Virus record (IMG/VR): IMGVR_UViG_3300011815_000001
DNA: 37,643 nucleotides
DNA from: an uncultured virus (IMG/VR IMGVR_UViG_3300011815_000001)
Taxonomy: Duplodnaviria > Heunggongvirae > Uroviricota > Caudoviricetes
Direction: 5' to 3' (one strand)
Shown: positions 2,523 through 33,190 of the stretch, one piece after another
How the letters are laid out: each line of letters begins with the position of its first letter
Numbering within the stretch: position 1 is the first letter of the stretch
Translations under genes and position numbers: made by a program
The notes under the pieces: generated by a model
The model's input: the letters and a program-made list of their open reading frames with translations, nothing else
Databases searched by the model: none
What the model was told of the DNA's origin: nothing

Positions 2523-3563
2523 TTAGAAAAGTCCATCTAAATCATCATCATCTTCACGTAAATCATAGAAATTCTGGGTCGTGCTAATATCCGCATGACC
2601 TAACAATTTACTCACTGATTTAATGTCAGCGCCCTCAGATAAAGCGATTGTGGCTCTACTACCGCGGAGGAGGTGAACATTAACTCTACGATTTGCGATG
2701 TCGCTGATTATGTCTGTGAACCAATAGTTTAGTGCAGAGACATCAACTTGTCTGACTTCACCTCTATATCTGGATACGAAAATATAAGGATTATCATCTT
2801 CGCCACGAACCTCTAACCATTTTTTAATTGCAACAATGGATTCTTCGTCAATAATAATAGGTCGTATATTGCCTTGCTCACCTTTACCTTTTGTTCGGAT
2901 AGGGGCTGTTTTGTACATTTTAGTTGGATTACCGTCTTTATCTAATATAGGCTCAGAATGAATTACGTCTTTCTTTAGCTGAATTAGCTCAGAGCGACGA
3001 CAAGCTGATGCATATAAAATCTTAATAGCGGCTAAAATTTGTAATTGACCATCTTCTTCTAATGTTTCACAGATTAGTTGATACTCATCTTTACTGAGTG
3101 CTACTTTATTGTAAACTTTATTAGGGGATGGATTTTGCACCCCTTCTACAAAGTTTCTGAAAGTCTTGAAATCATCCTCATCTTCATAAAAATTAATCAG
3201 ATACTTGTTTAAAGATGAAATAGAGCTTCGCTTCATTTTAATACCATTAGAAGAAACGCCTCGTCTTACCAAACTATTTTGGAATCGCATAAAGTCTTTC
3301 TTTTTAATTTCAAAAACCTTTTTGTTATTAAGTGTTTCGTATACCCAATAATAAAATTCTCGCAATGCTGATTTATATTGGATTGCTGAACGAGGGGAGA
3401 GGTGAGTAGATTCTTCTAGAAATTCATTTACTAGGTTTCGGTTAAACGGATTTACTTTATCCCACATTTCCTCAGTTACTGGTTTATTCTTGGTAGCTCG
3501 ATCACGTAGTTGATTAGTTTCGAATTCTTTGCTGTTTAGTTCTTCTGTCATTATGTATATCAT
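2523..3563 (-). CDS. Tyrosine recombinase/integrase (SPbeta YomM-like position in the tail cluster)
   Basis: Catalytic set R (CRRSE), K (RTKGKG), HxxR (HLLR), H (LLGH), Y (QNFY), plus an N-terminal SAM-like domain. Confidence 0.9.
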   Translation of the reverse strand: MIYIMTEELNSKEFETNQLRDRATKNKPVTEEMWDKVNPFNRNLVNEFLEESTHLSPRSAIQYKSALREFYYWVYETLNNKKVFEIKKKDFMRFQNSLVRRGVSSNGIKMKRSSISSLNKYLINFYEDEDDFKTFRNFVEGVQNPSPNKVYNKVALSKDEYQLICETLEEDGQLQILAAIKILYASACRRSELIQLKKDVIHSEPILDKDGNPTKMYKTAPIRTKGKGEQGNIRPIIIDEESIVAIKKWLEVRGEDDNPYIFVSRYRGEVRQVDVSALNYWFTDIISDIANRRVNVHLLRGSRATIALSEGADIKSVSKLLGHADISTTQNFYDLREDDDDLDGLF

Positions 3564-3580
3564 CCTTTCTTACAATATAT

Positions 3581-3609
3581 AAAAAAGAGATGACTAAATC
3601 TGTCATCTC
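3581..3609 (-). terminator. Intrinsic terminator after the GIY-YIG gene
   Basis: Minus strand reads GAGATGAC-agattta-GTCATCTC-TTTTTT. Confidence 0.75.
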
Positions 3610-3613
3610 AGTG

Positions 3614-4678
3614 CTATACAGCTTTAAATGTATTATTATTAATTACGTTTTCCTCTATAGGGATTCCCGCTAAAATATAAGCATTTATTAAATTACCGAA
3701 ACGATTAGTATAAAAACTCGTTGAACGAGTAATATCGCTTTTATCAATTGTTCTAGATGTAATGTAACCATCAATGTTATATAGCTCTTTTAGTTTAAGT
3801 AACGAATCTGCATTCTCTTTTTGTTTAAGTGACTCTTTGTCAAAATTGAATTCACACTTTAAATTCTCCATAGACTTGTAATGCCTCATTACAACAGAAA
3901 CTGATGGGAGGTTGTTATTTTTAGTATCTTTTAATTCGATGTGATTTGGGAATCTTCCATGCGTTTTAATAAAATCTTTAAATTTTAAATACACATCCTG
4001 TTTACTATATTCTTTTCTCTCATACAACTTCTTATTTCCAACAAAATCAAATAAATCGGATTCAATTAATGCATTTTTAAAACTGCCAAATTGGTCAATG
4101 TAAACATTATATGATGGATATTGGATATTATTTGCAAAGTCTCTTTGTGATGGAGTTCTGCCTTCTGTATAATAAAACTCTTGCATAAATGATACTAGTT
4201 CGTCTTTGACATACTTTCTATTTGCATTACCGATTTTACTTTTAGTTTCCTCATTAAAAATAAAGCGTTCAACACTTGTGTCTGGCATATTCTTATTGTA
4301 TCCGAATTCTTTTTTATGAGAGCCATAAAAATTAATCCAGTACAACTCTCTACTAGTTAGTGCTTCGACTTCACATTCTTCAATAATAGAAAAACCGAAA
4401 TGATGTAGTCCATGTAAATTGTATGCGCTCTGAAGATGTTCGTTTCCGTGTTCATTTTTTAATAAAAGTCTTTTATGCTCAGATAGACGTTTCTTTAAAT
4501 CGACGCTTTGACCAATATATACTTTATTGTTAATTAAATTAGTTATTTTATAAATACCTGATACTCTTTTTGGTGAATAGTCCTGTTTGCAAATATCGCA
4601 ATACTTTCTATTGTGAGTAGTTTTATTAAACGAATTTATTCCACATTTTTCACACATTTTCTTTTCCATATGTATCAT
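3614..4678 (-). CDS. Freestanding GIY-YIG homing endonuclease with an N-terminal Zn finger and about three C-terminal homing-endonuclease-associated repeats
   Basis: SGIYKITNLINNKVYIGQS, R (KKRL), E (SRELYWI) and GYN motifs. CxxC...CxxC at the N-terminus. Repeated GRTP/GRFP...PS...FG units. The start may be 4669. Confidence 0.88.
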   Translation of the reverse strand: MIHMEKKMCEKCGINSFNKTTHNRKYCDICKQDYSPKRVSGIYKITNLINNKVYIGQSVDLKKRLSEHKRLLLKNEHGNEHLQSAYNLHGLHHFGFSIIEECEVEALTSRELYWINFYGSHKKEFGYNKNMPDTSVERFIFNEETKSKIGNANRKYVKDELVSFMQEFYYTEGRTPSQRDFANNIQYPSYNVYIDQFGSFKNALIESDLFDFVGNKKLYERKEYSKQDVYLKFKDFIKTHGRFPNHIELKDTKNNNLPSVSVVMRHYKSMENLKCEFNFDKESLKQKENADSLLKLKELYNIDGYITSRTIDKSDITRSTSFYTNRFGNLINAYILAGIPIEENVINNNTFKAV

Positions 4679-13658: not shown

Positions 13659-15185
13659 TTAATAGCGTGTGCCTTTTTTGAATAGGAATAGTTGGGAAGG
13701 ATCGAAGTTTTGTTTTTGTTTTCGACGCTTGATTTCTAATTCTTCCACCACGTAGTAACATAAATATGCTAATGACGAGTAGCGGTCTTTTCGAGCATTA
13801 AAGTTTTCTTTAAGTTTAATTCTACCAACTTCATTAATTTCAGCCTCTAAGTTTACAATCTCATTTACTAATAATTTGGCATGAACATAAGGCATTTTGA
13901 AACCTTGTCGCAATTCTACTGGTAGTTTTTCATAAGCTTTCTTAGAGTTTAAATATTCATTTCCTTCATCTTCATTCATTGGCAATTTCAATTTACCTTT
14001 ACTCAATACATCTTTAAATTTAAATGCGATATCAGAGTTCATTTCAGCAGTAGCATGAATAGCATAAATAACTTTTTCTGCATTCGGATATTGGCAACGT
14101 TTAGCTAATTCCTCATTATTGAAGCAACTTAAAGGATCATAAACAGTTCCACGTTCTGTGTCAGATGTCTCTTCCATCAAAGCATCAAGCACACCAATAC
14201 CACTTCCTGCACGGTCAAGTACGATTGTATCTATATCCATGTCGTGGTAAAGCTGTTTGATTCTGAGCGCCTGTCTACCAGTGTGCATTCCTTCAATTGT
14301 TTCTAGATACACTACTTCAATCACATAATCACCATTGGTTTTTGGAATTAAGCGAGCAACTGTAATTGCAGTAGCGTCATTTTGACTACCTGCCATTACT
14401 GCAATATCCGCAGATAATACTCGGATTTCACCTTGTTCCTTTTTAGGGATTTCAAATGAATTACCCTTAACTAATGTTGAAACTTCTTGAGGATAGTAAC
14501 ATCTTCCAACTTTACGAGCTTTATGTAAATCCTCAAATTTAAAAATACTTTTTAGTGATTGACCATAGAATAAAGATTCCATCTCAATCATCCAAGTGAT
14601 TTCGTTGAAAGTTGTTTCTTGCATCTCATCTTCTACTTGCTCTCTCATTAATAAGCTTTCTTTGATAGGGAGTTGGTAGGGAAGGGAGCATACGAAGTAG
14701 GATTTGCCGTTAACCATTGAATTCGTGTAAGAGTCAACTCGTGCAAAAGAGTGTTCACTTTTGAATCCTGCTGAAGATAAGTATATTTCTTTGTTTCGTT
14801 CTTGAAGGTGAGAGTATTCTGGTTTACTTAAGAATTTTGGCTGTCGAGGAGCGGTTTGGAACTTACGTAGGACTGTATTGATTACATCAATATCCACAAG
14901 GCGATACTCATCTACGACAAGTACGTTACTTCGGTTTCCTCGTGCCCCGTCGTTTGAAGCGACTGTGCGAATCCAGCTACCATTATGGAAGGTGACTGAA
15001 CTATCGTTTACCGATGTTTTTAGATTTGAAATTTCTCTTTCTAGGTTAGGGGAGTTGGTTCGTAATTCTTCTATTTTTTGTATAATTTCACGAGCCTGAG
15101 ATTTTTGACCTGCGGCGGCGATTATCTTTGATTCAGGATACAATATGGCTCGTGTGACACAAAATATTGCTGTAAGAAAGGTCTT
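13659..15185 (-). CDS. Terminase large subunit, exon 2
   Basis: Begins AAG ACC TTT (KTF, the second half of Walker A). Walker B LVVDE. Nuclease motifs SADIA and KDRYSS. Confidence 0.9.
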   Translation of the reverse strand, partial: KTFLTAIFCVTRAILYPESKIIAAAGQKSQAREIIQKIEELRTNSPNLEREISNLKTSVNDSSVTFHNGSWIRTVASNDGARGNRSNVLVVDEYRLVDIDVINTVLRKFQTAPRQPKFLSKPEYSHLQERNKEIYLSSAGFKSEHSFARVDSYTNSMVNGKSYFVCSLPYQLPIKESLLMREQVEDEMQETTFNEITWMIEMESLFYGQSLKSIFKFEDLHKARKVGRCYYPQEVSTLVKGNSFEIPKKEQGEIRVLSADIAVMAGSQNDATAITVARLIPKTNGDYVIEVVYLETIEGMHTGRQALRIKQLYHDMDIDTIVLDRAGSGIGVLDALMEETSDTERGTVYDPLSCFNNEELAKRCQYPNAEKVIYAIHATAEMNSDIAFKFKDVLSKGKLKLPMNEDEGNEYLNSKKAYEKLPVELRQGFKMPYVHAKLLVNEIVNLEAEINEVGRIKLKENFNARKDRYSSLAYLCYYVVEELEIKRRKQKQNFDPSQLFLFKKGTRY

Positions 15186-15460
15186 CAATTTTGTTATCGT
15201 AGAGGTTTTTTACCCATCTACTTCTTGCACTTCTTATTAATGCAAGTTCAGCATACATGTTCACCGTATCATTAATATGATTTAGGTGTCGGAAACTCGT
15301 GGACGTATTATATTCTATTGGCAAATAGTTTCAACGTCTATGCGTTACGATACCCTAAGACTTTTAAATCTTATGGTTATCTCGGTATTATCATCTCAGA
15401 CCTCTACCGATATTTCCCGATTACAGTTAAAAGGTTTCCCTTAAAACTAGGCTTTTAAAG
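15186..15460 (-). ncRNA. Group I self-splicing intron, 275 nt, no endonuclease ORF
   Basis: The 5' exon ends in U (GGT) and the intron ends in G. Removal restores ASRGQG|KTFLTA in frame. P1 is AGGU/GCCU with the U.G pair at the splice site. P3 is UCGGGAA (15420-15414)/UUUCCGA (15295-15289). P7 is GCAUA (15343-15339)/UAUGC (15255-15251). Confidence 0.9.
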
Positions 15461-15724
15461 ACCTTGACCTCGACTCGCAATATAAGTCATAAAATTAAAG
15501 TGCATCATTGCCCATAGCAATATTTGTTGGAACAATTTTAATTCCACGCCTAAATAATCTCGAACAAACCTGTGCGGATTTGCTCTATAGAAAGAAGTCC
15601 ATTCACCAACACCTTGCATAAGACGTTCTGACTTTGTACCTTCTTTTCTAAATTTGCGAGATCGCTTGAATATATTCGCACTGTTTTTATTCTTTTTTGC
15701 GCTGGATTCAAAAAATCCCATCAA
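15461..15724 (-). CDS. Terminase large subunit, exon 1 (YonF-like)
   Basis: YRANPHRF...LKLFQ Q-motif region ending at ASRGQG. 88 codons, giving a spliced product of about 596 aa. Confidence 0.9.
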
Positions 15725-17600: not shown

Positions 17601-18785
17601 TTAAAATTCAATATAAAACGTAGCTTTACGACCCTTTTCAGTAAGCCATAGCAATTTCTGATGTGCTTTACCTGTCAAACGGGCATCTTTAGCATAATCA
17701 TCTACGCCACCAAATGATCCATTTACAATTAAATCAACACCATGAATTTCATTCTCAAAGTTTTTATGAATATGTCCTGCAAATACAGCTTTAGGCTTCT
17801 TAGCAAACATTAAAGTCATATCCTGTACAACTTTGCCAATTCCATCTAAATGTCCATGCACTCCGTAATATGTATTACCAAGGATTTCAGCAACAATAAT
17901 TTCTGAATCTAAGTCATTGTTATGGAATGTAATGTTTTCAAACTTTTCAAGTCGAGCTTGCATATACCAAACAATAAATTCATGGAATGATTCTGTACGA
18001 ACTTCCTCTTCTTTACGAGCAGAGACACGATCATGATTACCTTTAACATTATAATAATGTACATGCTCAAAATTATTAGCTAGTACGGAAAGTAGTTCTG
18101 CTAATGCTTCAGCAACTTTTTGTGTTGATACTACTGCATTCTCAGTTTCAGCAAGTTTAGTTAGACGGTGGATTACGCCACTAATTACATCTCCTAGCTC
18201 AAATACATGAATTTCCTTTGTGTTAGTTAACTTTTGATATTCTAATGTTTCGTGAGTTAATTGATTTAAACGTTGATAAAATACTTCGTCATTGTATGTA
18301 TTCCAATGGTTTTTAGTAACCATTCCCTTGTGTAAATCACTTAGTAGGAGAGTTAGTGCTCCATTTGAGTTAGATGGAAGGGAAGGTTTCATCCATTGCA
18401 AAGGTTTATTCGTATTCATATCATTTTTAATTTCATCTAATAGCTTTTTAAGTAAGTTATCTAATCGAGCTTCATGTGTCATATATTTGCGAACTTCTCT
18501 ACGCTCATCAGAAATCTGAACTTTTAACTTAAATAATTCTTTTTCAAGTTCTTTCATTTCAAGTAATTGCTCGTTATCCAGTCCATTTTTAAACTTGTTC
18601 TCAAAGTATTCCTTCATTTCTAAGAAGAAGAATGAACCTTTACGCAATGTGTCTCTATGTATATTTAGTTTTAGAGCTTCGACGATATCTTGCCAATCAT
18701 CATTGATAACTCCAGTTAGTTTATCTTCAATTAGGCGGTACTTCCATTCCGTAGCACTTTCATGTTGTAGTTTTTCTAAAGTCAT
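17601..18785 (-). CDS. Calcineurin-like metallophosphoesterase (YonJ-like)
   Basis: Motifs LSDLH, LGD, GNHD, HGH and GHIH after an N-terminal coiled coil. Confidence 0.85.
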   Translation of the reverse strand: MTLEKLQHESATEWKYRLIEDKLTGVINDDWQDIVEALKLNIHRDTLRKGSFFFLEMKEYFENKFKNGLDNEQLLEMKELEKELFKLKVQISDERREVRKYMTHEARLDNLLKKLLDEIKNDMNTNKPLQWMKPSLPSNSNGALTLLLSDLHKGMVTKNHWNTYNDEVFYQRLNQLTHETLEYQKLTNTKEIHVFELGDVISGVIHRLTKLAETENAVVSTQKVAEALAELLSVLANNFEHVHYYNVKGNHDRVSARKEEEVRTESFHEFIVWYMQARLEKFENITFHNNDLDSEIIVAEILGNTYYGVHGHLDGIGKVVQDMTLMFAKKPKAVFAGHIHKNFENEIHGVDLIVNGSFGGVDDYAKDARLTGKAHQKLLWLTEKGRKATFYIEF

Positions 18786-18797
18786 TTAATCACCATC

Positions 18798-18995
18798 CTA
18801 TTCTTCAACAGGTGCTAATGTACTAGACGCATTAATAGTAAAATCTAGCCGACCCTTAGTGGATAATTCCTCAAAAATATCGTTGATTGAAAATGTTTCA
18901 ACCGTTTCATCATTTTTCCCGTACTCATGGATTAATCCATTTTCAAAATCAACCTCTGCATTTTTGAATGCGAAATCCTTTTTTAGTTTTGCCAT
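18798..18995 (-). CDS. YonK-like small protein
   Basis: 65-aa MAK...FKNAEVD...IHEY.K pattern directly upstream of the YonJ-like gene, AGGAG SD. Confidence 0.65.
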   Translation of the reverse strand: MAKLKKDFAFKNAEVDFENGLIHEYGKNDETVETFSINDIFEELSTKGRLDFTINASSTLAPVEE

Positions 18996-19019
18996 ATTAA
19001 ATCTTCTCCTTTTCTCAAT

Positions 19020-19035
19020 TGTTCCATGTGGAACA
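19020..19035. promoter_or_regulatory. parS-like palindrome
   Basis: TGTTCCATGTGGAACA against the Spo0J/ParB consensus TGTTNCACGTGAAACA (2 mismatches). Intergenic. Confidence 0.55.
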
Positions 19036-19081
19036 TATATTAATTATGTAATATTCATTTTAAAACAGAGGTAGTATTTAC

Positions 19082-19241
19082 TTCCTCAAAACCAACCTAA
19101 GAGCGATGCTAAGGAGTTCATTATAGAAAGAGGGGGAGGGTAACTATAATGAATTTAATATCTAATCTAAGGGAGGAGAGATTATAACAGAATAGGCTCA
19201 AGGATTATTCTTTTATCATCTCTTAGATTGGTTTTCAGGAA
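19082..19241. ncRNA. Candidate multi-branched structured RNA
   Basis: A 22-bp closing stem (2 mismatches) encloses three hairpins whose loops are GGAGG/GGA on plus and CCUCC/UCC on minus. Confidence 0.5.
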
Positions 19242-19242
19242 A

Positions 19243-19276
19243 TAAAAAGGGCAATAGAAGATACATTTCTACGCCC
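19243..19276 (-). terminator. Probable terminator after PIN-PhoH
   Basis: GGGC-TAGAA...TTCTA-GCCC stem with bulges, then TTTTTATTT on the minus strand. Confidence 0.55.
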
Positions 19277-19301
19277 GCAATTATGTAATATTTAATTTAA
19301 G

Positions 19302-20549
19302 CTACATACTTTCAGCCATATCAGCTAACTTACTACGAAATACGTTTTGAAGCTCCACTTCACCATATAAGTCAGTACCTCTAAATACTTCACTCATACG
19401 CTTCATGCCGTTATCATTTTCATAAGCTATGTCATCGATTTGTAAGTGGAAATCTCCATCAACGATAATTTTGGTATTACTTCCTAACCTCTGAAGTCCT
19501 AATTTAAGTAAATTTCGGCTTAAATTTTGGGATTCGATGCACCAGACTATTACCTTATTGTCTCCAGTATCATAGCCACGAAGGTTAGCAAAAGTCTGTA
19601 ATTCTAGTTTACCTTCATCAATAAACTGTTGAATAACAAACTCATCTCCAAATTTAGGGAGTAATGTTCCGACATTTTGTAGGATTTTCTCTAATTTAGT
19701 TCCTTTATAGAACCCCATTGATGCACTATCCTTAGTTTCTGCTGGATTCACAAAGATAACAAGCTTATATCCTTCACGCTCTACTAGTTGCCAAGCAGTA
19801 TGTAATGCCAAGATTGATTTTCCCGAACCAGCTCTACCTCGAAGGGAGGTTACTTGATTAGATAAAATACTATCTATAGCCATTACTTGGAATTCATCTT
19901 TAGGAGATATGGGCTCAAATTGTCCACTTGTAATAGTTTGACCCAATTTGCCTTTTTCATCTTTAAGTGACACAGTTTTTTCACCTGTCCACTTAACAAT
20001 GTCAAGTAATTCTCCGTCTACTGAATCATTGATTACTGCATATTCATTAATAATTAATCCATAAGAATTCATTTCCTTATTAATTAAGTTTTCAATATGA
20101 GATTCTTCATCAATATCAACAATTTTAAAGCCTTTGTGCTCAATGTAATCATCTTTCTTATTAACATTGACTAGTTCGATGTTGTAAAGTTTAGCCTTGT
20201 CTCTAAGCAACTTGTCATTAGTGATAATTCCGTAGTTATTTTCCACACAGACTTGAATTAAAATATTGTCAACATAGCTCTTATCCCATTCGTCAGAAAG
20301 ATCAAAGCTGTAATCTTTTAAATTTACGTGAATATGTTCATTCTCATCTAATGCAGTTTTAGCTTGGCGAATTTCATATTGTAATTGTCTGTCTGATTTA
20401 CGTGTTAATTCTAAATGTTCAACTTCACGTAAAACATGAGATGAAATTACAACATTGTATTCTTGAAGAACTTGTGGATATCCAATTAAAGTGTTCGTAT
20501 CAACTAAATATAATTTTTCATCATTATTCATGATTAGCCCGACTCCCAT
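19302..20549 (-). CDS. phoH: PIN-domain PhoH-family ATPase (PhoH2-like)
   Basis: PIN residues LVDTN, E, VDN, TND. Walker A GRAGSGKS, LRG, ESQN, GDFHLQID and a terminal RS.LA motif. Confidence 0.88.
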   Translation of the reverse strand: MGVGLIMNNDEKLYLVDTNTLIGYPQVLQEYNVVISSHVLREVEHLELTRKSDRQLQYEIRQAKTALDENEHIHVNLKDYSFDLSDEWDKSYVDNILIQVCVENNYGIITNDKLLRDKAKLYNIELVNVNKKDDYIEHKGFKIVDIDEESHIENLINKEMNSYGLIINEYAVINDSVDGELLDIVKWTGEKTVSLKDEKGKLGQTITSGQFEPISPKDEFQVMAIDSILSNQVTSLRGRAGSGKSILALHTAWQLVEREGYKLVIFVNPAETKDSASMGFYKGTKLEKILQNVGTLLPKFGDEFVIQQFIDEGKLELQTFANLRGYDTGDNKVIVWCIESQNLSRNLLKLGLQRLGSNTKIIVDGDFHLQIDDIAYENDNGMKRMSEVFRGTDLYGEVELQNVFRSKLADMAESM

Positions 20550-20552
20550 TCA

Positions 20553-20584
20553 TAGAGAGGGTAGGGGAGTAATAACCCCTCTCT
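20553..20584 (-). terminator. Hairpin between HU and PhoH, overlapping the PhoH ribosome-binding region
   Basis: AGAGAGGG/CCCTCTCT inverted repeat with a weak U tract. Confidence 0.4.
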
Positions 20585-20639
20585 GTTATTTTATTTTTAT
20601 TTATAATTATGTAATGTTAATTTTGAAAAATATGTATTA

Positions 20640-20996
20640 TTAAGCTTGCTCTTTATAAGCATCCTTCATAGTCTTAGATTGAGTGAATCCTACTGATTTC
20701 GAAGCCGCAATATCAATTTGAGCTTGTGCTTTAGCATCTTCATCAGATACACCTTGAGCTTTTAGCTCTTTTAATTTAGCAGGGTTTAAACCTTTACGAG
20801 CTTTCTTATTTTTAACTTTTAATGTGCCAATATTTCCAAGTGGAACATCGTTACCATTCAGTAGAGCATCTTCAATTGCAAAGAATACATCCTCAATAAA
20901 TGGTTCTAGTTCTTTGTTTGAAATTTTCTCACCAGTGCGTTCCTCGTAGTTTGCTTTTACCAAGTCACGTAATTCTGCTTTTTTTAATTTTGTCAT
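20640..20996 (-). CDS. HU family DNA-binding protein (YonN-like) with an extended arm tip
   Basis: V.L..IGTLKVK.KKARKGLNP...IAASKSVGF..SK.MKDA signature. Confidence 0.9.
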   Translation of the reverse strand: MTKLKKAELRDLVKANYEERTGEKISNKELEPFIEDVFFAIEDALLNGNDVPLGNIGTLKVKNKKARKGLNPAKLKELKAQGVSDEDAKAQAQIDIAASKSVGFTQSKTMKDAYKEQA

Positions 20997-21215: not shown

Positions 21216-23855
21216 TTAGAAAGCTAAATTATTTCTCATATACTCACGTTGTCTCTCTAATCGCTTTTCATATGAGCATTTTTCACAGTATTTGATGTTA
21301 CCGTTAGTTACTTTAATTCTAATTCCGCAAGACTCACACTGCTTAGTCCCTTTTAAATTTTCACGTAAATTACTCACCAACTCTTCACCGAAACTGTTCC
21401 AAATAGTATCCTTATTAATTAGCTTAGTATTAATAAAGAACTCTTTCACTAATACATTCGCAACTTTTTGAGAGTCAGGCTCAATTTTTAGTAACTCGTC
21501 TCGCATTAATTTAAAGAAGAATATTCTCCCTTCCTTAGAAGAGGTTATATTATTGTCTCTGAATAGCTTGCGCTTGTTACGTTCAATTTCTTTATATCTA
21601 CTAATAACTTTATGATTCACGTAAGTAATATCACCAACAATCAGCATTTTTGGATCATATTCTCCTGCGATTTCCTCAAATTTAATGTTTTTATTTGGAA
21701 CAATCTTTCTCAGGCGATTTACCGTACTGTTATTAAGTGGCTCAACATTAGTTTTATCTTTCTTCTTTGCCTCTTTAAAGAAATGGGGGACTTTACCTTT
21801 GATAGCTTTTCGAATACGCTCATCCACTTCGGCAGGGCGTTTAGGCATATACAGTGTTTTAGCATAATCAATGATATAGTTGTTTTCTGCTGTAAGCCAT
21901 TTAACCACATCTATGTCGATTTCATTACTCGAATTAAATATTTTAGTAATATTGTTGCTCACTTCGCCAATGTTTGCTTTAAAAGCGGCAATCAATGAGT
22001 CATATATTTTAGTGCTATCGACATGCACTGGTTCAGCAACACCCATTTCATAATAAAGAGGAACGATACCTTTCATATTCCTTTTGGCTACTTCGATAAA
22101 GGTCTCATTCTGTATTGCTAGAATTTTATCACCGTCGTTGTCGAATTGGAGGATGCGTGAAATAGGATCATGAACACTAGAATACATCCCTTGAGTTATA
22201 AACCATTTTTTCAATTCTTCATTTTTAACAATGGTGCGAATTGCATGTTCTTTATACAGGTGAGGGGAACGCAGTATATCTACTTCGCCCTCTTTAAACA
22301 CACTAGTATAAACATCTTTTCCACTTAGAAGTCCTTGTGGGTTTTCAATTCCTAAAAATAGTTTTTCACAGAAAGCGTACAAATCTGGAACAATATAAAG
22401 GTATCTGCCGTTAACACGCAATTTACCAGCTCTTGCGTCATTAACTAAAGACTTTTTCTTATCTTTAATGATTTTTTTAGAATGTTCATCACTCAATAAT
22501 TCAGGATAAATAGATAAGGCTTGCTGATAGTGGTTCATTCTTTTATTTCCTCTATCTACGCCTAAAACACGCAACATCGTTTCCTTGTCGTTTCCGATTT
22601 TCTCAATATCCGCAACTGTATCTTTGGCTATAAATTTTAGCTCTTTGTTGCTGATGTCAGTAAGTGTTTGAAGCATCTGATAATTTAAATTAGCTTCTCC
22701 ACCTAAATCCTCTTCATTCAGTTTGGTAGCCTGGCATTTATGAAGTTTGAACTTTTCCTTATAATCATCCCAATTTTTATAGTATTTCGCCATTTTAAAC
22801 TGACTTTTAGTGAAAATTACCTCTATTTTGTCATCAATTATGTCCCATTCTTTGCCGTAAATATCAGTAATCTTTGTATTCTCATGTTCTATTGCGAACT
22901 TGTCAAAAGCGAAAGGTACTAAGAGTCCCTTAACGAACGGCAGTCGTGTCATGAATGTTTTCTTATACTTTGAAGCTAACACCATTCCACAACCATCTGT
23001 GTGCTCTATGTTCACTGTAAGTTCTTTGCGTGTAATTTCATATGTATCTCTATCAATGTAATCAAATTCCGAAGTAACAGGGGATGATAAATCAGGCACT
23101 ACAATAGCTCTATCAATGTCAAAGTTATTCCATTTAGTACTTGCGGAAGTGATTAAAGCCTTATAAGCTAATAATTTATTAACATTACATCCACCTTTGG
23201 AGTTGATTTCTTCAATTGAAAGTCCACAAGTTAAAGTATTTTCATATTCTAACCATAATGATTCTTTAATGAATACTGTTTTCTTTGTTCTGATTTGTCC
23301 TGCACTTGATGAGAAATAAACATACTTTTCTCCATTATGTATAAATCCATTATTAATAATGTCTTCTAAGATATTGAAGTAAAATGCTCTAACTACAAAT
23401 AAGTTTTCGGATATATCATCTATTTTCATTCCAATAGTGCGAGTTAGAGCTGAATCGAAAATACCGATAATCTTATTAACAGTTAGCGTCTCCTGACGTA
23501 ACTCACGAACCCCGTTAAAATTGCCAAACTGTTCTTTTAGCTTCTCTTTTAATTCTTGAATATTGTCATTGATAAATTTAACTCTTTTGCGATTTTGTTT
23601 TTTCCAGTCAATTAAATATTTTCGATAAATAATTAATTTTTCAAGACGTTCATTATCGCTTTTGTCTTCAATTAACTGTTCAATTTCTTTCTCTATGGAA
23701 TCAAATTTATCCTTAACCCTTGTTGTATTTGCTTTGCTTTTCTTTTTAAGTAAATGACATCTTAATAACTGCTTATGTATCTCGTATTCACAATCGGTAT
23801 AAAAACATTCAGTCCCCAAACTGTAAATGTATACCTGTTTGTCTAATCCTTTCAA
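21216..23855 (-). CDS. yonO: YonO-like single-subunit two-barrel RNA polymerase
   Basis: 879 aa with HTDGCG, RSPHL and catalytic QFDNDGD motifs and a C-terminal CxxC...CxxC. Upstream of HU and the late operon, as in SPbeta. Confidence 0.88.
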   Translation of the reverse strand: MKGLDKQVYIYSLGTECFYTDCEYEIHKQLLRCHLLKKKSKANTTRVKDKFDSIEKEIEQLIEDKSDNERLEKLIIYRKYLIDWKKQNRKRVKFINDNIQELKEKLKEQFGNFNGVRELRQETLTVNKIIGIFDSALTRTIGMKIDDISENLFVVRAFYFNILEDIINNGFIHNGEKYVYFSSSAGQIRTKKTVFIKESLWLEYENTLTCGLSIEEINSKGGCNVNKLLAYKALITSASTKWNNFDIDRAIVVPDLSSPVTSEFDYIDRDTYEITRKELTVNIEHTDGCGMVLASKYKKTFMTRLPFVKGLLVPFAFDKFAIEHENTKITDIYGKEWDIIDDKIEVIFTKSQFKMAKYYKNWDDYKEKFKLHKCQATKLNEEDLGGEANLNYQMLQTLTDISNKELKFIAKDTVADIEKIGNDKETMLRVLGVDRGNKRMNHYQQALSIYPELLSDEHSKKIIKDKKKSLVNDARAGKLRVNGRYLYIVPDLYAFCEKLFLGIENPQGLLSGKDVYTSVFKEGEVDILRSPHLYKEHAIRTIVKNEELKKWFITQGMYSSVHDPISRILQFDNDGDKILAIQNETFIEVAKRNMKGIVPLYYEMGVAEPVHVDSTKIYDSLIAAFKANIGEVSNNITKIFNSSNEIDIDVVKWLTAENNYIIDYAKTLYMPKRPAEVDERIRKAIKGKVPHFFKEAKKKDKTNVEPLNNSTVNRLRKIVPNKNIKFEEIAGEYDPKMLIVGDITYVNHKVISRYKEIERNKRKLFRDNNITSSKEGRIFFFKLMRDELLKIEPDSQKVANVLVKEFFINTKLINKDTIWNSFGEELVSNLRENLKGTKQCESCGIRIKVTNGNIKYCEKCSYEKRLERQREYMRNNLAF

Positions 23856-27839: not shown

Positions 27840-27990
27840 GGAAGGTACGTTTTTTGCCATACATAAAGATAATCAATAAATAATAAACTACTACTCAAAT
27901 ATTAATCATCTAATCTAATAGTTGAGGATAAGTAGAAGGAGTGTGAGTATATATTGATTTATTAATAGTATGGCAAAAAATTAACCTTCC
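27840..27990. repeat. 23-bp inverted repeat with a ~105-bp spacer
   Basis: GGAAGGTacgTTTTTTGCCATAC (27840-27862) against GTATGGCAAAAAAttaACCTTCC (27968-27990), 3 mismatches. Confidence 0.75.
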
Positions 27991-28102
27991 TGCATGAAGT
28001 GTTGGTATGACTGAATTTGTGAGGGTTTAGGTGGAAGGGAGGTAAGTAGTGTAATCCTGAACAAGTGGGAATAATTGATTTGATGAAAATACGGAATGGG
28101 AT

Positions 28103-28600
28103 ATTTAATTAAAATTTAATTCTGAGAGACGTTTTAATATTGGAATGAAGAATGAATCCACTTTAGGATTAAATCACCTGTACGATTTCTGTGGAATACG
28201 AGAAGAGTATCTAGAGGAACATTTGTATAGTGAGCTGGAAGATGTAGCTATAGGTTGGAATCAGTTAGATGTGATTAGAGCGCGGTAATTCAAATTTAAT
28301 TAATTCCAATTGATTTCAGATGCGTTAGGGTTGAGATGAACAATTAATCCACTTTGAATCTAAAGTGACTGTACGAATATCCTCGAATTAAATAGAGGTA
28401 TATGGAGTGGATAGGTAGGATTGAGGAATAGGGAGATGATTTAGTGTGAGAAATATGAGAGTTGAATCATGCGGAAAAATATAGTGTGGCAAATTTAATT
28501 AAAATCAATTGAAATTAGACACTTTAATGTTAAGAGGATAAATTGGTAGGGTAAGTAGCTAGGACATCTCACAGAATACTACAGTAATTAAATATGGGAT
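28103..28600 (+). repeat. Degenerate tandem repeats with a period of about 191-199 bp
   Basis: ATTTAATTAA at 28103, 28294 and 28493. AATCCACTTT at 28155 and 28346. CTGTACGA at 28178 and 28369. Confidence 0.7.
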
Positions 28601-28677
28601 GTTGAGTGGTAGGTGAGGTTGGAATGTGAGTAGGATGAGCGAAAGGTTGGATATGGATAAATTTATAAATAATTGTG

Positions 28678-28707
28678 TTGACTTATATGTATGCAATAGT
28701 GTATAAT
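28678..28707 (+). promoter_or_regulatory. Orphan sigmaA-like promoter
   Basis: TTGACT, 18 bp, TATAAT. Confidence 0.5.
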
Positions 28708-29173
28708 CCCTAACCTTTGAGTAAAGAGAGAAAATCTTAAGATAAGTGGGAATAGAATGAGCTTAAATACAGTGTTTAATAGGGTTGATTGAGGAATAGA
28801 CTGGATGAGTAGAGTAGAAAGTGGATGACTGTTCGGATTGAAAATGGATACGATAAGATCAAAATTGAGTGTCGAGTAGGAATGGAGTATTGATGAGAAA
28901 TGAGGAGTACAAATCAAGTGAAATGTAGTGAGGAGTAGGGTTCATTAAGGATGGATAGGTAGGATTGGAAAGAGTAGGGGTATATAGGGTGAGAGGAGAG
29001 TTCGGGAAAAGGGTATTAAATAAAGGGATGAATGGGAATATTGGGGAGATAATGAAAGGAGAGGAGTAGGAGGTGAAAAAAGTTGAGGGAGGAAAAGGCA
29101 GTGATTAATAGGGTTGGTTCGGAACGATTCGAGAGGGAATTCGATAGGAAAGGTGAGGATAGGATGAATTATG

Positions 29174-29203
29174 TTGACGTAGAGGTAGGAAGTGTGATAT
29201 AAT
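29174..29203 (+). promoter_or_regulatory. Orphan sigmaA-like promoter with extended -10
   Basis: TTGACG, 18 bp, TGa-TATAAT. Confidence 0.55.
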
Positions 29204-29604
29204 GTTAAATTTTATGTGAAGAGGAAATATGAGGAAAAGTAAGATGAGGGAGAGTGAAAAATAAAACAGGGTGTGTTTGTGTAAGTGGTAGGGGTAGTTT
29301 TCAGGTAAACATGATCTAATTATTGGAAACTATGCCCCCGTTTTAAGCTTATAAAATGCAGTAAATAAGCGGTCTAAACGTAGTTATAATAGTAATTATA
29401 TCTATCCACCTTATAATACTTATAATAAACAGGTAAAACAATCCCATTAAAACGGAAATTTGATTAATACCTAGTAAATCTATAAGGATAATATATAATA
29501 TGGAAAAATCCTATACCCTTTAAGCCTATTAATAGTTATATTTATATACCCTGTGAGGGTATCGTTGTATAACAGTGAGCACAAATTCAATGACTTACTA
29601 AATC

Positions 29605-29719
29605 ATAACTTTTTCTTATTACTATTCCTAATTTCGATAACTTTTCATTATCATTCCTTTTCCATCTTATCTATAACTATTTCTTATCATTATCACGCTA
29701 TATCATAACTTTTAGTTAT
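29605..29719. repeat. Four phased quasi-palindromes ATAACTNTTNNTTAT
   Basis: Copies start at 29605, 29637, 29673 and 29705 (spacing 32, 36, 32). Confidence 0.65.
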
Positions 29720-29823
29720 CATACTTCTCCCAATCCATTCCATCTCACACTTTCAAAATTACTATTCCTAATTATAAAATTACATATTTCAAAATGAAAA
29801 ATCCTAATATCCATCATCAAATA

Positions 29824-31984: not shown

Positions 31985-33190
31985 TTACAGATTTATAATT
32001 ACTGGGTGAAAATCTACACCCTTTATTCCGTCAGCAAATGCGTTTGGAAATACTTTTCTAATAATGTTCGATGCGCCGTTAATATCTGCATTAATAAATA
32101 ATCCGTCTTTTGATTGATATAATCCCCGTTTAACTCTTTTACCACTAAACTTAACACCTTTATACATGTCGTCATTATCAATGAAGCTTGCTTTTGATGT
32201 GTAACTCTCTTCTATTAGAATCATTTTAATACCAATATCTTTAAGTTTATATTGTAATTGAAGAATTACTTTCTCAAATGGTAGTTGTATAAAATTTCTC
32301 TTTCTTTTAGAAGATTGTTTCCATGTCTTATTCTTGCCAATCACCACAACATCCACATTAAATGCCTTACAATAATTAACTAAATACTTTGTAGCTTTAT
32401 GGATATAGTTATCAATTTTATTATCACGCTTTAATGTAAGTTGCGATATTTTATTACTCCAGTTCAAACCATTTACCTTCTTTAATTCAGATTGAATCCT
32501 AGCTTTCCTCATATTGTAATATTGATTCATGCTTTTTAAGGGTTTCCCATTAATAACAAATGGTACTTCTCCGAATGTATTTTGTACCGTCATTAGGTTG
32601 TTTAAACCTAAATCAATGCCTATAATACGACTGCTTACTTCATTAATTTCAGGAACTTCAATTTCATACACGACCTCAATTACATAGTAGCCATTCTTAG
32701 GTATGATTCTAGTTTGTATGTGTTTTCCTTGTATTTTAGTTTTTATCAAGCCATTGTATGGGTGAAAAGGTTTAAAACTAAAATATAAGTTGTTACCTTT
32801 AATTAATGTTTGTGTATTCGTCAGAACACAAATGAATCTTCCTTTGTCTTTATCCAAGTAATTCGGCAAACGTGGTCGCCCTAAGTATTTGCTCGGATTT
32901 TTACTCCAATCTTTAATCGCAACGAAGAAAGATTTCCAATTTCGTTCTAAGATTTTAAGAGTATGTTGACCTGAATTACTCTTGATAGCTTTAAATGATT
33001 CTTCTGTTTTCATTATTTTAGCCATGTGAGAATAGGGTAGAAACTTATTGTTATTTATAAACTCTTGTCTAACAATGTAATTAGCATGATTGTATAAATC
33101 CTTAGACAACTTACAATATTGATTACAAATTGCGAACATTTTATGATTCTTATTTATGATATGGCGTTCAACACGGTTTTCCTTTTTCAA
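31985..33190 (-). CDS. tnpB: TnpB RNA-guided nuclease (IS200/IS605, IS1341-like, no TnpA)
   Basis: LYN.ANY..RQ, GRPRLP.Y, RuvC-I IGIDLG, VVIGKN, EESYTSK and RuvC-III INADING. 401 aa. Confidence 0.92.
   Translation of the reverse strand: MKKENRVERHIINKNHKMFAICNQYCKLSKDLYNHANYIVRQEFINNNKFLPYSHMAKIMKTEESFKAIKSNSGQHTLKILERNWKSFFVAIKDWSKNPSKYLGRPRLPNYLDKDKGRFICVLTNTQTLIKGNNLYFSFKPFHPYNGLIKTKIQGKHIQTRIIPKNGYYVIEVVYEIEVPEINEVSSRIIGIDLGLNNLMTVQNTFGEVPFVINGKPLKSMNQYYNMRKARIQSELKKVNGLNWSNKISQLTLKRDNKIDNYIHKATKYLVNYCKAFNVDVVVIGKNKTWKQSSKRKRNFIQLPFEKVILQLQYKLKDIGIKMILIEESYTSKASFIDNDDMYKGVKFSGKRVKRGLYQSKDGLFINADINGASNIIRKVFPNAFADGIKGVDFHPVIINL

Follow-up and report, generated by a model that had tools for sequence, protein, structure and literature searches.

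The 37,643-nt stretch of an uncultured Caudoviricetes virus analysed here (IMG/VR record IMGVR_UViG_3300011815_000001; the whole stretch is referred to as the window) carries, between a PIN-PhoH gene and a yonK-like gene, a non-coding element in which a long closing helix surrounds three hairpins. This structured element is real and is not a product of chance, and it is both unclassified and unusually conserved. The element probably has a function within a late-control cassette located where yonK starts. As a tentative reading, based on its sequence and modelled fold, it may form the core of a minus-strand late leader or of a processed small RNA of a new family, the C/U-rich loops of which would bind G-rich partners.

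Structure of the element

The closing arms at 19082-19103 and 19220-19241 pair with each other and enclose three hairpins within a total of 160 nt, in agreement with a sequence-only reading of this stretch that had described a 22-bp closing stem and three hairpins. The inverted repeat stretches further to 27-nt arms (19077-19103 / 19220-19246) with 89% complementarity, and the closing helix of 30 pairs is interrupted by one mismatch and one bulge. All three hairpins have perfect stems, namely TTCATTATAG/CTATAATGAA at 19117-19126 / 19144-19153 with a loop of 17 nt, TAATCT/AGATTA at 19163-19168 / 19179-19184 with the loop AAGGGAGGAG, and AGAATA/TATTCT at 19189-19194 / 19206-19211. The loops of the element read AUCCUUGAGCC, CUCCUCCCUU, and UUACCCUCCCCCUCUUU on the minus strand and GGGGGAGGG, GGGAGGAG, and CAAGGAU on the plus strand. 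The bracketing motif copies noted in the same reading are also real and correspond to a 22-nt direct repeat on both sides of the element (19042-19063 and 19279-19300, 91% identical).

The folding energy of the 160-mer was -43.9 kcal/mol on both strands. Shuffled 160-mers averaged -31.3 kcal/mol on the plus strand (z -4.0) and -24.5 kcal/mol on the minus strand (z -6.1), with none of 200 as stable as the element in either case. The 22-mer arm and its inverted copy were the only two matches in the window at up to three mismatches (none expected). C/U-rich 5-mers are concentrated in the 160-nt element (11 vs 1 complement), while the whole window contains 189 of them and 186 complements, a density that predicts approximately 0.8 per 160 nt. 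Four CTAAGAG-like words also lie within the element. No minus-strand open reading frame (ORF) of at least 30 amino acids was found in 18996-19301.

Strand assignment

All genes flanking the site, from 2 to 24190, are encoded on the minus strand, and the hairpin with a U-run near the element reads as a terminator on that strand only. Pairing was compared between the window and a related metagenome contig, L006, using a structure that was itself built from their minus strands, so that the counts are biased that way and only four positions are informative: all 52 model pairs are standard on the minus strand in both sequences (104 of 104 cells), whereas 97 of 104 cells pair in the mirrored plus-strand structure. 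Among the minus-strand pairs, three are U.G in both sequences and one changes from C-G to U-G in L006; on the plus strand, A.C occurs at the four wobble places, affecting 3 of 30 helix pairs in the window and 4 of 30 in L006. All nearby genes, 13 of the 14 copies of a promoter-like motif, the terminator, the wobble pairs, and the stronger minus-strand z-score point to the minus strand. The G.U pairs, which had been judged not to settle the strand, thus lean to the minus one.

The sequence-only reading had made one proposal for each strand; context and wobble pairs favor the minus-strand one, and the CsrA or ribosome sponge suggested for the plus strand has no promoter, terminator, or pairing support. 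A plus-strand product would sponge ribosomes or CsrA through loops resembling Shine-Dalgarno (SD) sequences or containing GGA, or would serve as an mRNA. The three GGA loops are indeed found, on the plus strand only, and 8 nt past a GGAGGG lies the ATG of a 12-codon frame (19148-19186), which corrects the earlier statement that no ORF follows the SD-like loops. This frame is regarded as trivial, and plus-strand expression has no other support. A weak sigma-70-like match (9/12) at 19012-19041 would also suit such a product, but matches of this kind are at chance level (5 sites vs 5.2 expected in shuffles), no plus-strand terminator was found, and the neighboring transcription signals all face the opposite way. 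Moreover, the fold is weaker on this strand, its closing helix contains the A.C mismatches, and no CsrB/Rsm-type match was obtained from Rfam. A plus-strand sponge is unlikely, and a plus-strand product of either kind is scarcely credible.

Conservation of the tile

The element belongs to an ultraconserved tile bounded by the terminator U-tract and approximately the fourth yonK codon. The comparator L006 is a 1,281-nt contig containing the PhoH end, the element, yonK, and the exonuclease start. The tile is 98.9% identical to L006 over 263 nt (2 mismatches and 1 gap), whereas the flanking proteins are 28-43% identical (39 of 94 amino acids for the PhoH end, 15 of 54 for YonK, and 32 of 74 for the exonuclease start) and the flanking coding DNA agrees in 111 of 205 and 176 of 327 columns (~54%). 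The tile differs at three places, namely a spacer base at 19075, a loop C-run one C shorter, which is in the same state in all four sequencing runs compared, and a wobble change at 19238 (C-G to U-G on the minus strand). All three are neutral for the minus-strand fold, and invariance is no lower in loops and linkers than in stems.

Parts of the stretch were present in 20 sequencing runs, none of them listed as RNA and none containing half of its words, and Logan contigs of four of them (X1, X2, X3, and X7) were compared. In X1 and X2, a 208-nt contig corresponds to window positions 19029-19237 with no substitutions and a single-base gap, while the adjoining contigs differ at 27 of ~255 and 68 of 680 positions (~10%); by arithmetic, the chance of zero change in 208 nt at 10% divergence is ~3e-10. 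The tile is also covered in X3 and X7, for which the positions of 144 differences are not listed, so that the count of zero substitutions is given for X1 and X2. A block of 230 unlike letters, conserved on either side, stands in place of yonK in X7. In X3, the tile contig and the PhoH-end contig diverge at 19245-19248, and the loose ends of the X1 and X3 contigs leave the window at 19245-19249. The tile is the constant piece in all five comparators, and both of its neighbors vary. A lack of structural conservation in related phages had been named as grounds for abandoning the earlier proposal; no such lack was seen, the sequence being near-invariant in close relatives.

Further searches returned no relatives. 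No match to the spacer was obtained with blastn among 50,697 phage records or 72,556 plasmids; an exact 24-mer was absent from 185,579 species-representative bacterial and archaeal genomes and from a viral contig collection, and an exact 22-mer was absent from the viral contigs. With single protein queries, neither PhoH nor the YonO-like protein had a relative in the viral contigs, nor PhoH in the genome contigs.

To our knowledge, no functional RNA is kept at 99% identity between genomes whose orthologous proteins share only 28-43%. The near-identity reflects either extreme constraint on nearly every base, for example from overlapping RNA, promoter, operator, and ribosome-site functions, or repeated recent exchange between otherwise diverged phages as one unit that includes the promoter and ribosome site of yonK. 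Exchange could also mean that the tile has little function of its own and is a mosaic or recombination segment, that is, a set of promoter/terminator exchange points, a recently shared segment, or a selfish insert of the miniature inverted-repeat transposable element (MITE) type, with genes being swapped around it. The steep fall in identity at its edges would be explained in this way, as would the replaced yonK of X7, the departure of the X3 contigs from the window, and boundaries that coincide with a gene start and a terminator U-tract. The 27-nt arms are terminal inverted repeats such as MITEs possess; dispersed copies, however, were not found, the two arms of the single copy being the only matches in the window, and no direct repeat adjoins the arm ends as a target-site duplication would. 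The absence of the exact 24-mer from representative genomes and viral contigs also argues against a mobile or recently shared segment, and the fold and the strand-biased wobble pairs are left unexplained. Since the tile is constant in five comparators while its neighbors vary, retention rather than chance sharing is indicated, which weakens this explanation further; it is unlikely.

Promoter-like motif and adjoining signals

Allowing one mismatch, the window contains 14 copies of the 12-nt motif AATATTACATAA, where 1.69 would be expected and no more than 6 were counted in any of 100 shuffles. The minus-strand sites are 1245, 2474, 4905, 5708, 9084, 10189, 10726, 12050, 16683, 19044, 19281, 20607, and 21038, and the single plus-strand site is 26747. 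An ORF start in the same orientation follows 13 of the 14 copies at a distance of 15-226 nt, late and structural genes being included. In two cases, the ribosome site starts 1-5 nt past the motif, so that the start site would have to fall in the motif or at its end. No -35-like partner common to the 14 copies was found. We infer that this layout is like that of phage single-subunit polymerase promoters; by analogy, AATATTACATAA is a candidate compact promoter for the YonO-like polymerase encoded in the window. A promoter consensus shared with SPbeta or Perkons was dropped, as the motif was not enriched in the SPbeta locus (50 matches vs 50.2 expected) or in the Perkons locus (89 vs 72.3).

Two of the copies, P1 upstream and P2 downstream (Table 1), bracket the element. 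P1 is the only copy that precedes the element instead of an ORF, and P2 comes next, after the element and before yonK; thus, the element takes the place of a gene in the promoter-gene layout. The terminator-like hairpin behind P1 has a folding energy of -11.6 kcal/mol (z -3.0). Its L006 counterpart differs in sequence and still folds (-18.6 kcal/mol, z -3.0), and the U-tract is identical, so that the order of promoter, hairpin, U-run, and element is kept while the letters of the hairpin are free. The hairpin may be read through by the late polymerase, may serve as a 5' protective structure, or may stop the P1 transcripts. The channel of ribonuclease (RNase) J1 admits only 4-5 single-stranded nucleotides, according to the part of PMC5419742 that treats this enzyme, and a hairpin near the 5' end would be expected to hinder it.

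A palindrome between P2 and the yonK ribosome site could act as an operator or form the 5' hairpin of the P2 transcript. Its 20-mer is also present in two viral contigs otherwise unlike the window, L010 and L011. The palindrome ATGTTCCATGTGGAACATAT occupies 19017-19040 in the window, 2998-3021 in L010, and 3001-3021 in L011, where it precedes an ORF that, judged by sequence, resembles a helix-turn-helix regulator. It may be an operator common to these contigs, as far as can be read from the letters.

That P2 and a unique operator-like palindrome are held in the tile also suits a role of the element as DNA. It would then form a cruciform or multi-way junction, or bind a regulator through its CTAAGRG words, and would give the yonK late promoter a platform of architectural or activating kind, perhaps together with the HU protein of the phage, or would signal initiation as a single strand. 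The four CTAAGAG-like words in the element would serve this role, the HU gene is conserved upstream in this phage, SPbeta, and Perkons, and the mode by which the sigma-less YonO finds its promoters is described as not known in the relevant part of PMC5467207. However, a cruciform needs both strands, and on the plus strand A.C takes the place of pairs in the closing helix, as given above. Perkons, moreover, has YonO-like, HU, and yonK genes but only 99 nt between the latter two, without such an element. A DNA-level role is decidedly unlikely.

Family membership

No match to the window was obtained from Rfam at the gathering score, the families covered including RsaE/RoxS, 6S, CsrB/Rsm, Y RNA, ribozymes, and riboswitches, which upholds the earlier impression that the element belongs to no known family. 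At E up to 10, the region 18900-19400 gave five chance-level matches, to snoRNA, miRNA, or caiA models only, with 14.6-20.5 bits against cut-offs of 50-88.5 (the best 20.5 bits against 51); even at this threshold RsaE was not matched in the region. ARAGORN predicted no transfer RNA (tRNA) or transfer-messenger RNA genes in the window, so the term cloverleaf, used earlier, corresponds to no tRNA-like feature. The unpaired C-rich stretches that characterize anti-SD small RNAs with C-rich loops are present on the minus strand, in the loops CUCCUCCCUU and UUACCCUCCCCCUCUUU. The 30-pair closing helix also has the near-continuous length of about 20 pairs or more that marks an RNase III stalk.

Several other candidates were rejected. 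A retron, packaging RNA (pRNA), riboswitch, 6S RNA, or Y RNA was dismissed because there is no reverse transcriptase nearby and no Rfam match; for riboswitch-type switching, the closing helix is in addition too long to act as a switch. A packaging site was set aside since the pac site of SPbeta relatives lies beyond yonO, between yonR and yonP, as located in the pertinent section of 10.1101/2021.11.22.469490. A remnant of the TnpB-like element at 31985-33190 was dropped, as no similarity between it and the element studied here was found.

Proposed function

The tentative reading as a late leader core or processed small RNA would proceed in four steps. First, AATATTACATAA, with the positional pattern described above, would be a late promoter and would probably be read by the YonO-like polymerase. 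Second, transcripts started at P1 or reading through from PhoH would carry the 5'/terminator hairpin and then the element. Third, the 30-pair helix, as modelled, would be a stability or processing stalk long enough for a double-strand-specific nuclease such as RNase III, and a stable RNA of ~120-170 nt would be freed from the polycistronic late transcript. In the fourth and weakest step, the three C/U-rich loops would bind SD-like sequences, as in RoxS/RsaE, or a protein.

A number of observations weigh against this reading. The terminator-like hairpin lies within 2 nt of P1, and a late polymerase that halted at it would leave the element without expression from P1; there is also no terminator between the element and P2/yonK. 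The link between the motif and YonO is by analogy only, because the motif is not enriched in SPbeta or Perkons. The pair counts lean to the minus strand owing to the derivation of the structure from that strand. Identity of 99% beside 54% exceeds the constraint usual for RNA function and may reflect recent exchange, and the comparators are so nearly identical that there is no covariation. A covariance model, R1, was built from the two near-identical sequences, which it scored at 230 and 225 bits; its effective sequence number is 0.85, and its reach is correspondingly short. This model gave no hit at E<1 when applied to the PK-3, Kirov, vB_BcoS-136, SPbeta, Perkons, SPbetaL2, SPbetaL8, and phi3T loci. 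Elsewhere in the window, its best non-self hit had 12.8 bits (E 0.25). Finally, duplex energies of four C/U-rich segments with 41 gene starts of the window revealed no preferred target: the adjacent yonK ribosome site ranked 29th, 11th, 22nd, and 9th of 41, the best duplexes (-14 to -17 kcal/mol) were scattered over unrelated gene starts, and BLAST detected no extended complementarity elsewhere in the window over 11 exact bases. Of the multivalent anti-SD small RNA proposed earlier for the minus strand, the C/U-rich loops have thus been recovered there and a specific target in the window has not.

The lack of a specific trans target in the window would be expected if the element were an RNA module acting only in cis, as an RNase III-type processing site, stabilizer, or insulator whose loops have no trans target. 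Such a module would uncouple the PhoH mRNA from the late yonK transcript or bar the translation of read-through transcripts. Its helix suffices for a double-strand nuclease, and the element, which lacks a terminator of its own, is placed exactly between the terminator and the next promoter. In modelled folds of leaders of 287 and 324 nt, moreover, a CUCU just 3' of the element, missing from P2-started transcripts, pairs with the GGAG in the ribosome site of yonK, which is no more than a hint of cis control. This SD-masking helix is weak, however, with 4 + 4 pairs and two wobbles. A stalk needs only the helix, yet the loops and linkers are equally invariant, and the loops are strongly C/U-enriched. 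A purely cis-acting module is unlikely.

The cis-only stalk, the recombination tile, and the DNA-level platform are live rivals of the tentative leader or small-RNA reading. A bolder variant, which is a long shot, regards the tile as a late-control cassette, mobile by horizontal transfer, that supplies the sigma-less YonO-type polymerase with a folded RNA or extruded DNA it needs, or else as an excised multivalent anti-SD decoy. As a cassette, it may be a structural promoter-proximal or antitermination element for starting or sustaining late transcription, kept letter-perfect or re-acquired together with the yonK promoter. As a decoy, it may shut off competing translation late in infection.

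The motif, repeated 14 times and behaving like a compact phage-polymerase promoter, offers a handle on the YonO promoter problem. A sharply bounded, near-invariant element of 170 nt would also be far easier to dissect than the 1.68-kb spacer of SPbeta. A non-coding tile 99% identical beside DNA neighbors at ~54% is unusual for phages, and the tile is relevant both to phage RNA regulation and to phage mosaicism.

Genomic context

The window comes from a large phage of Bacillus type that has no close relative among 50,697 phage records, the best DNA identity being ~65%. The features at the locus are listed in Table 1.

Table 1. Positions of the element, adjoining signals, and neighboring genes in the window.
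Feature	Position	Strand	Description
Structured element	19077-19246	minus	30-pair closing helix, core 19082-19103 / 19220-19241, around three hairpins
Ultraconserved tile	18986-19248	n/a	First yonK codons and ribosome site, palindrome, P2, spacer, and whole element to U-tract
P1, upstream motif copy	19281-19292	minus	9 nt past PhoH stop codon, 2 nt before hairpin; also in L006
P2, downstream motif copy	19044-19055	minus	48 nt before yonK-like start codon, inside conserved tile
Intrinsic-terminator-like hairpin and U-run	19237-19278	minus	Hairpin 19247-19278, then UUUUUAUUU
Palindrome TGTTCCA-TG-TGGAACA	19020-19035	n/a	Between P2 and ribosome site; 6-pair hairpin; unique in window
YonO-like single-chain RNA polymerase	21216-23855	minus	51% amino acid identity to SPbeta YonO and to Psychrobacillus phage Perkons
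HU gene	20640-20996	minus	Order after YonO-like gene as in SPbeta yonO-yonN
PIN-PhoH (PhoH2-type) gene	19302-20549	minus	PF02562, PF13638; 58% amino acid identity to Tsamsa-like Bacillus phages
65-aa ORF, diverged YonK	18798-18995	minus	First gene after element
Exonuclease / metallophosphatase gene	17601-18785	minus	Follows yonK-like ORF

The PIN-PhoH gene lies directly upstream of the element. Its leader (20550-20606) contains GAGAGGGG...CCCCU.CCCUCUCU directly before the listed ATG, and this hairpin could mask the ribosome site. The true PhoH start may lie further downstream, since relatives align only from residue 9-14. The 65-aa ORF scored 19.1 bits against the Pfam YonK model, under the cut-off of 25, while its L006 counterpart scored 64.2 bits and is 43% identical to SPbeta YonK. 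The exonuclease protein of the window is 22-23% identical to the others aligned, and protease, terminase, portal, and structural genes are located further downstream.

The large terminase appears to be divided between two ORFs. One, 15455-15724, corresponds to the beginning of phrog_15503, and the other, 13659-15188, to the remainder of phrog_15503 as well as to terminase families. The ~266 nt between them (15189-15454) may represent an intron or some other insertion. Two further genes, one integrase-like (2523-3563) and one resembling a GIY-YIG homing endonuclease (3614-4678), stand among the structural genes, and a transposase-like ORF of 401 aa (phrog_506) is found at 31985-33190. A region of ~1.3 kb at 27950-29300 is ORF-poor and nearly G-free on the minus strand, with a GC skew of up to +0.88 on the plus strand and an abrupt reversal of the skew at 29500-29800. 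Nowhere else in the window are C/U-rich 5-mers so dense (20 per 200 nt); the region also contains dispersed AT-rich repeats and may be a long non-coding RNA or an origin.

Comparison with known systems

The sections of Forrest et al. (2017, PMC5467207) on late transcription report that YonO transcribes the SPbeta late genes, that the YonO promoter was not determined, and that a YonO start site and a non-coding RNA without annotation are present upstream of yonK. As far as the accessible text of the literature on YonO goes, including a 2021 SPbeta review and a preprint, no later promoter determination was found, nor, in that on YonO and SPbeta, any account of the non-coding RNA that Forrest et al. 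report where the late operon begins. The SPbeta order is yonO, yonN (HU), an ORF-free stretch of 1.68 kb, yonK, and yonJ (exonuclease), and that of the window is YonO-like, HU, (PhoH), element, yonK, and exonuclease. The two PYonO primers listed in the supplementary table of PMC5467207 sit, as located by eye, in the SPbeta spacer ~1.2-1.4 kb before yonK. From the gene order and these primers, the element stands where SPbeta has its late start site and leader, at the late-gene head and in the same place relative to the yonO, HU, yonK, and exonuclease genes. Both the SPbeta spacer and the window element are ORF-poor and structured; in SPbeta, the Rfam model DUF3800-VIII matches the yonN-yonK spacer (L004 3303-4983, minus strand) at 3559-3624 with 47.5 bits against a cut-off of 40.2. 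The two differ in length (1.68 kb in SPbeta vs 0.3 kb here) and showed no similarity by blastn or covariance model, and one late promoter is reported for SPbeta in the sections of PMC5467207 noted above, against 14 motif copies in the window. SPbeta-like phages are 89-98% identical throughout their yonN-yonK spacers, with indels.

In the Tsamsa-like phages Kirov and vB_BcoS-136, the slot from PhoH to YonK is occupied by promoters of the sigma-A type, by small transcripts that form hairpins, and by tRNA arrays with 5 to 17 annotated genes, which makes it a slot for stable RNAs. The promoters, of the TTGACA...TATAAT type, follow PhoH and drive the short hairpin transcripts ahead of the tRNA arrays (Kirov, L002 4230-4535; vB_BcoS-136, L003 4235-4555), in which hairpins of the form AGGCAC-(N)ACAGCAATC...GTGCCT are common to both phages.

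Among small RNAs, RoxS pairs through four C-rich regions with G-rich target sequences, as stated where PMC5419742 deals with its targets. Like RNAs of the RoxS/RsaE type, the window element exposes in several hairpins and linkers C-rich stretches able to pair with SD-like sequences, and it would be similar in size after removal of the stalk. Unlike them, it is enclosed by the 30-pair helix, lacks a terminator of its own, is phage-encoded, and is placed as an operon leader. The c4 RNA of P1/P7 and the CI RNA of P4 are small structured RNAs cut from the leader of the operon that they control, and through their loops they pair with sequences at ribosome sites farther along that transcript. The complementarity of the window element to the downstream ribosome site is, in contrast, not specific in the duplex test.

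Bacterial MITEs of the Correia or bcr1 type are ~150-170 nt long, with long terminal inverted repeats and a strong fold, and lie in intergenic regions near promoters. The window element differs from them in its single copy, in the lack of a target duplication, and in the absence of its exact 24-mer from the 185,579 genomes. The PeSL composite promoter/terminator motifs (PeSLs) of T4-like phages are presented, in the portion of PMC4122927 devoted to them, as short, conserved promoter-plus-stem-loop units between variable genes, at which unrelated sequences are exchanged. The locus similarly combines a conserved motif, a hairpin, and a tile between genes that differ strongly among relatives. PeSLs, however, are small and repeated, whereas the tile is a single-copy segment of 263 nt with a folded element of 170 nt, and the order in the window is promoter and then hairpin. 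For the mosaic aspect of the locus, no closer precedent than PeSLs has been described.

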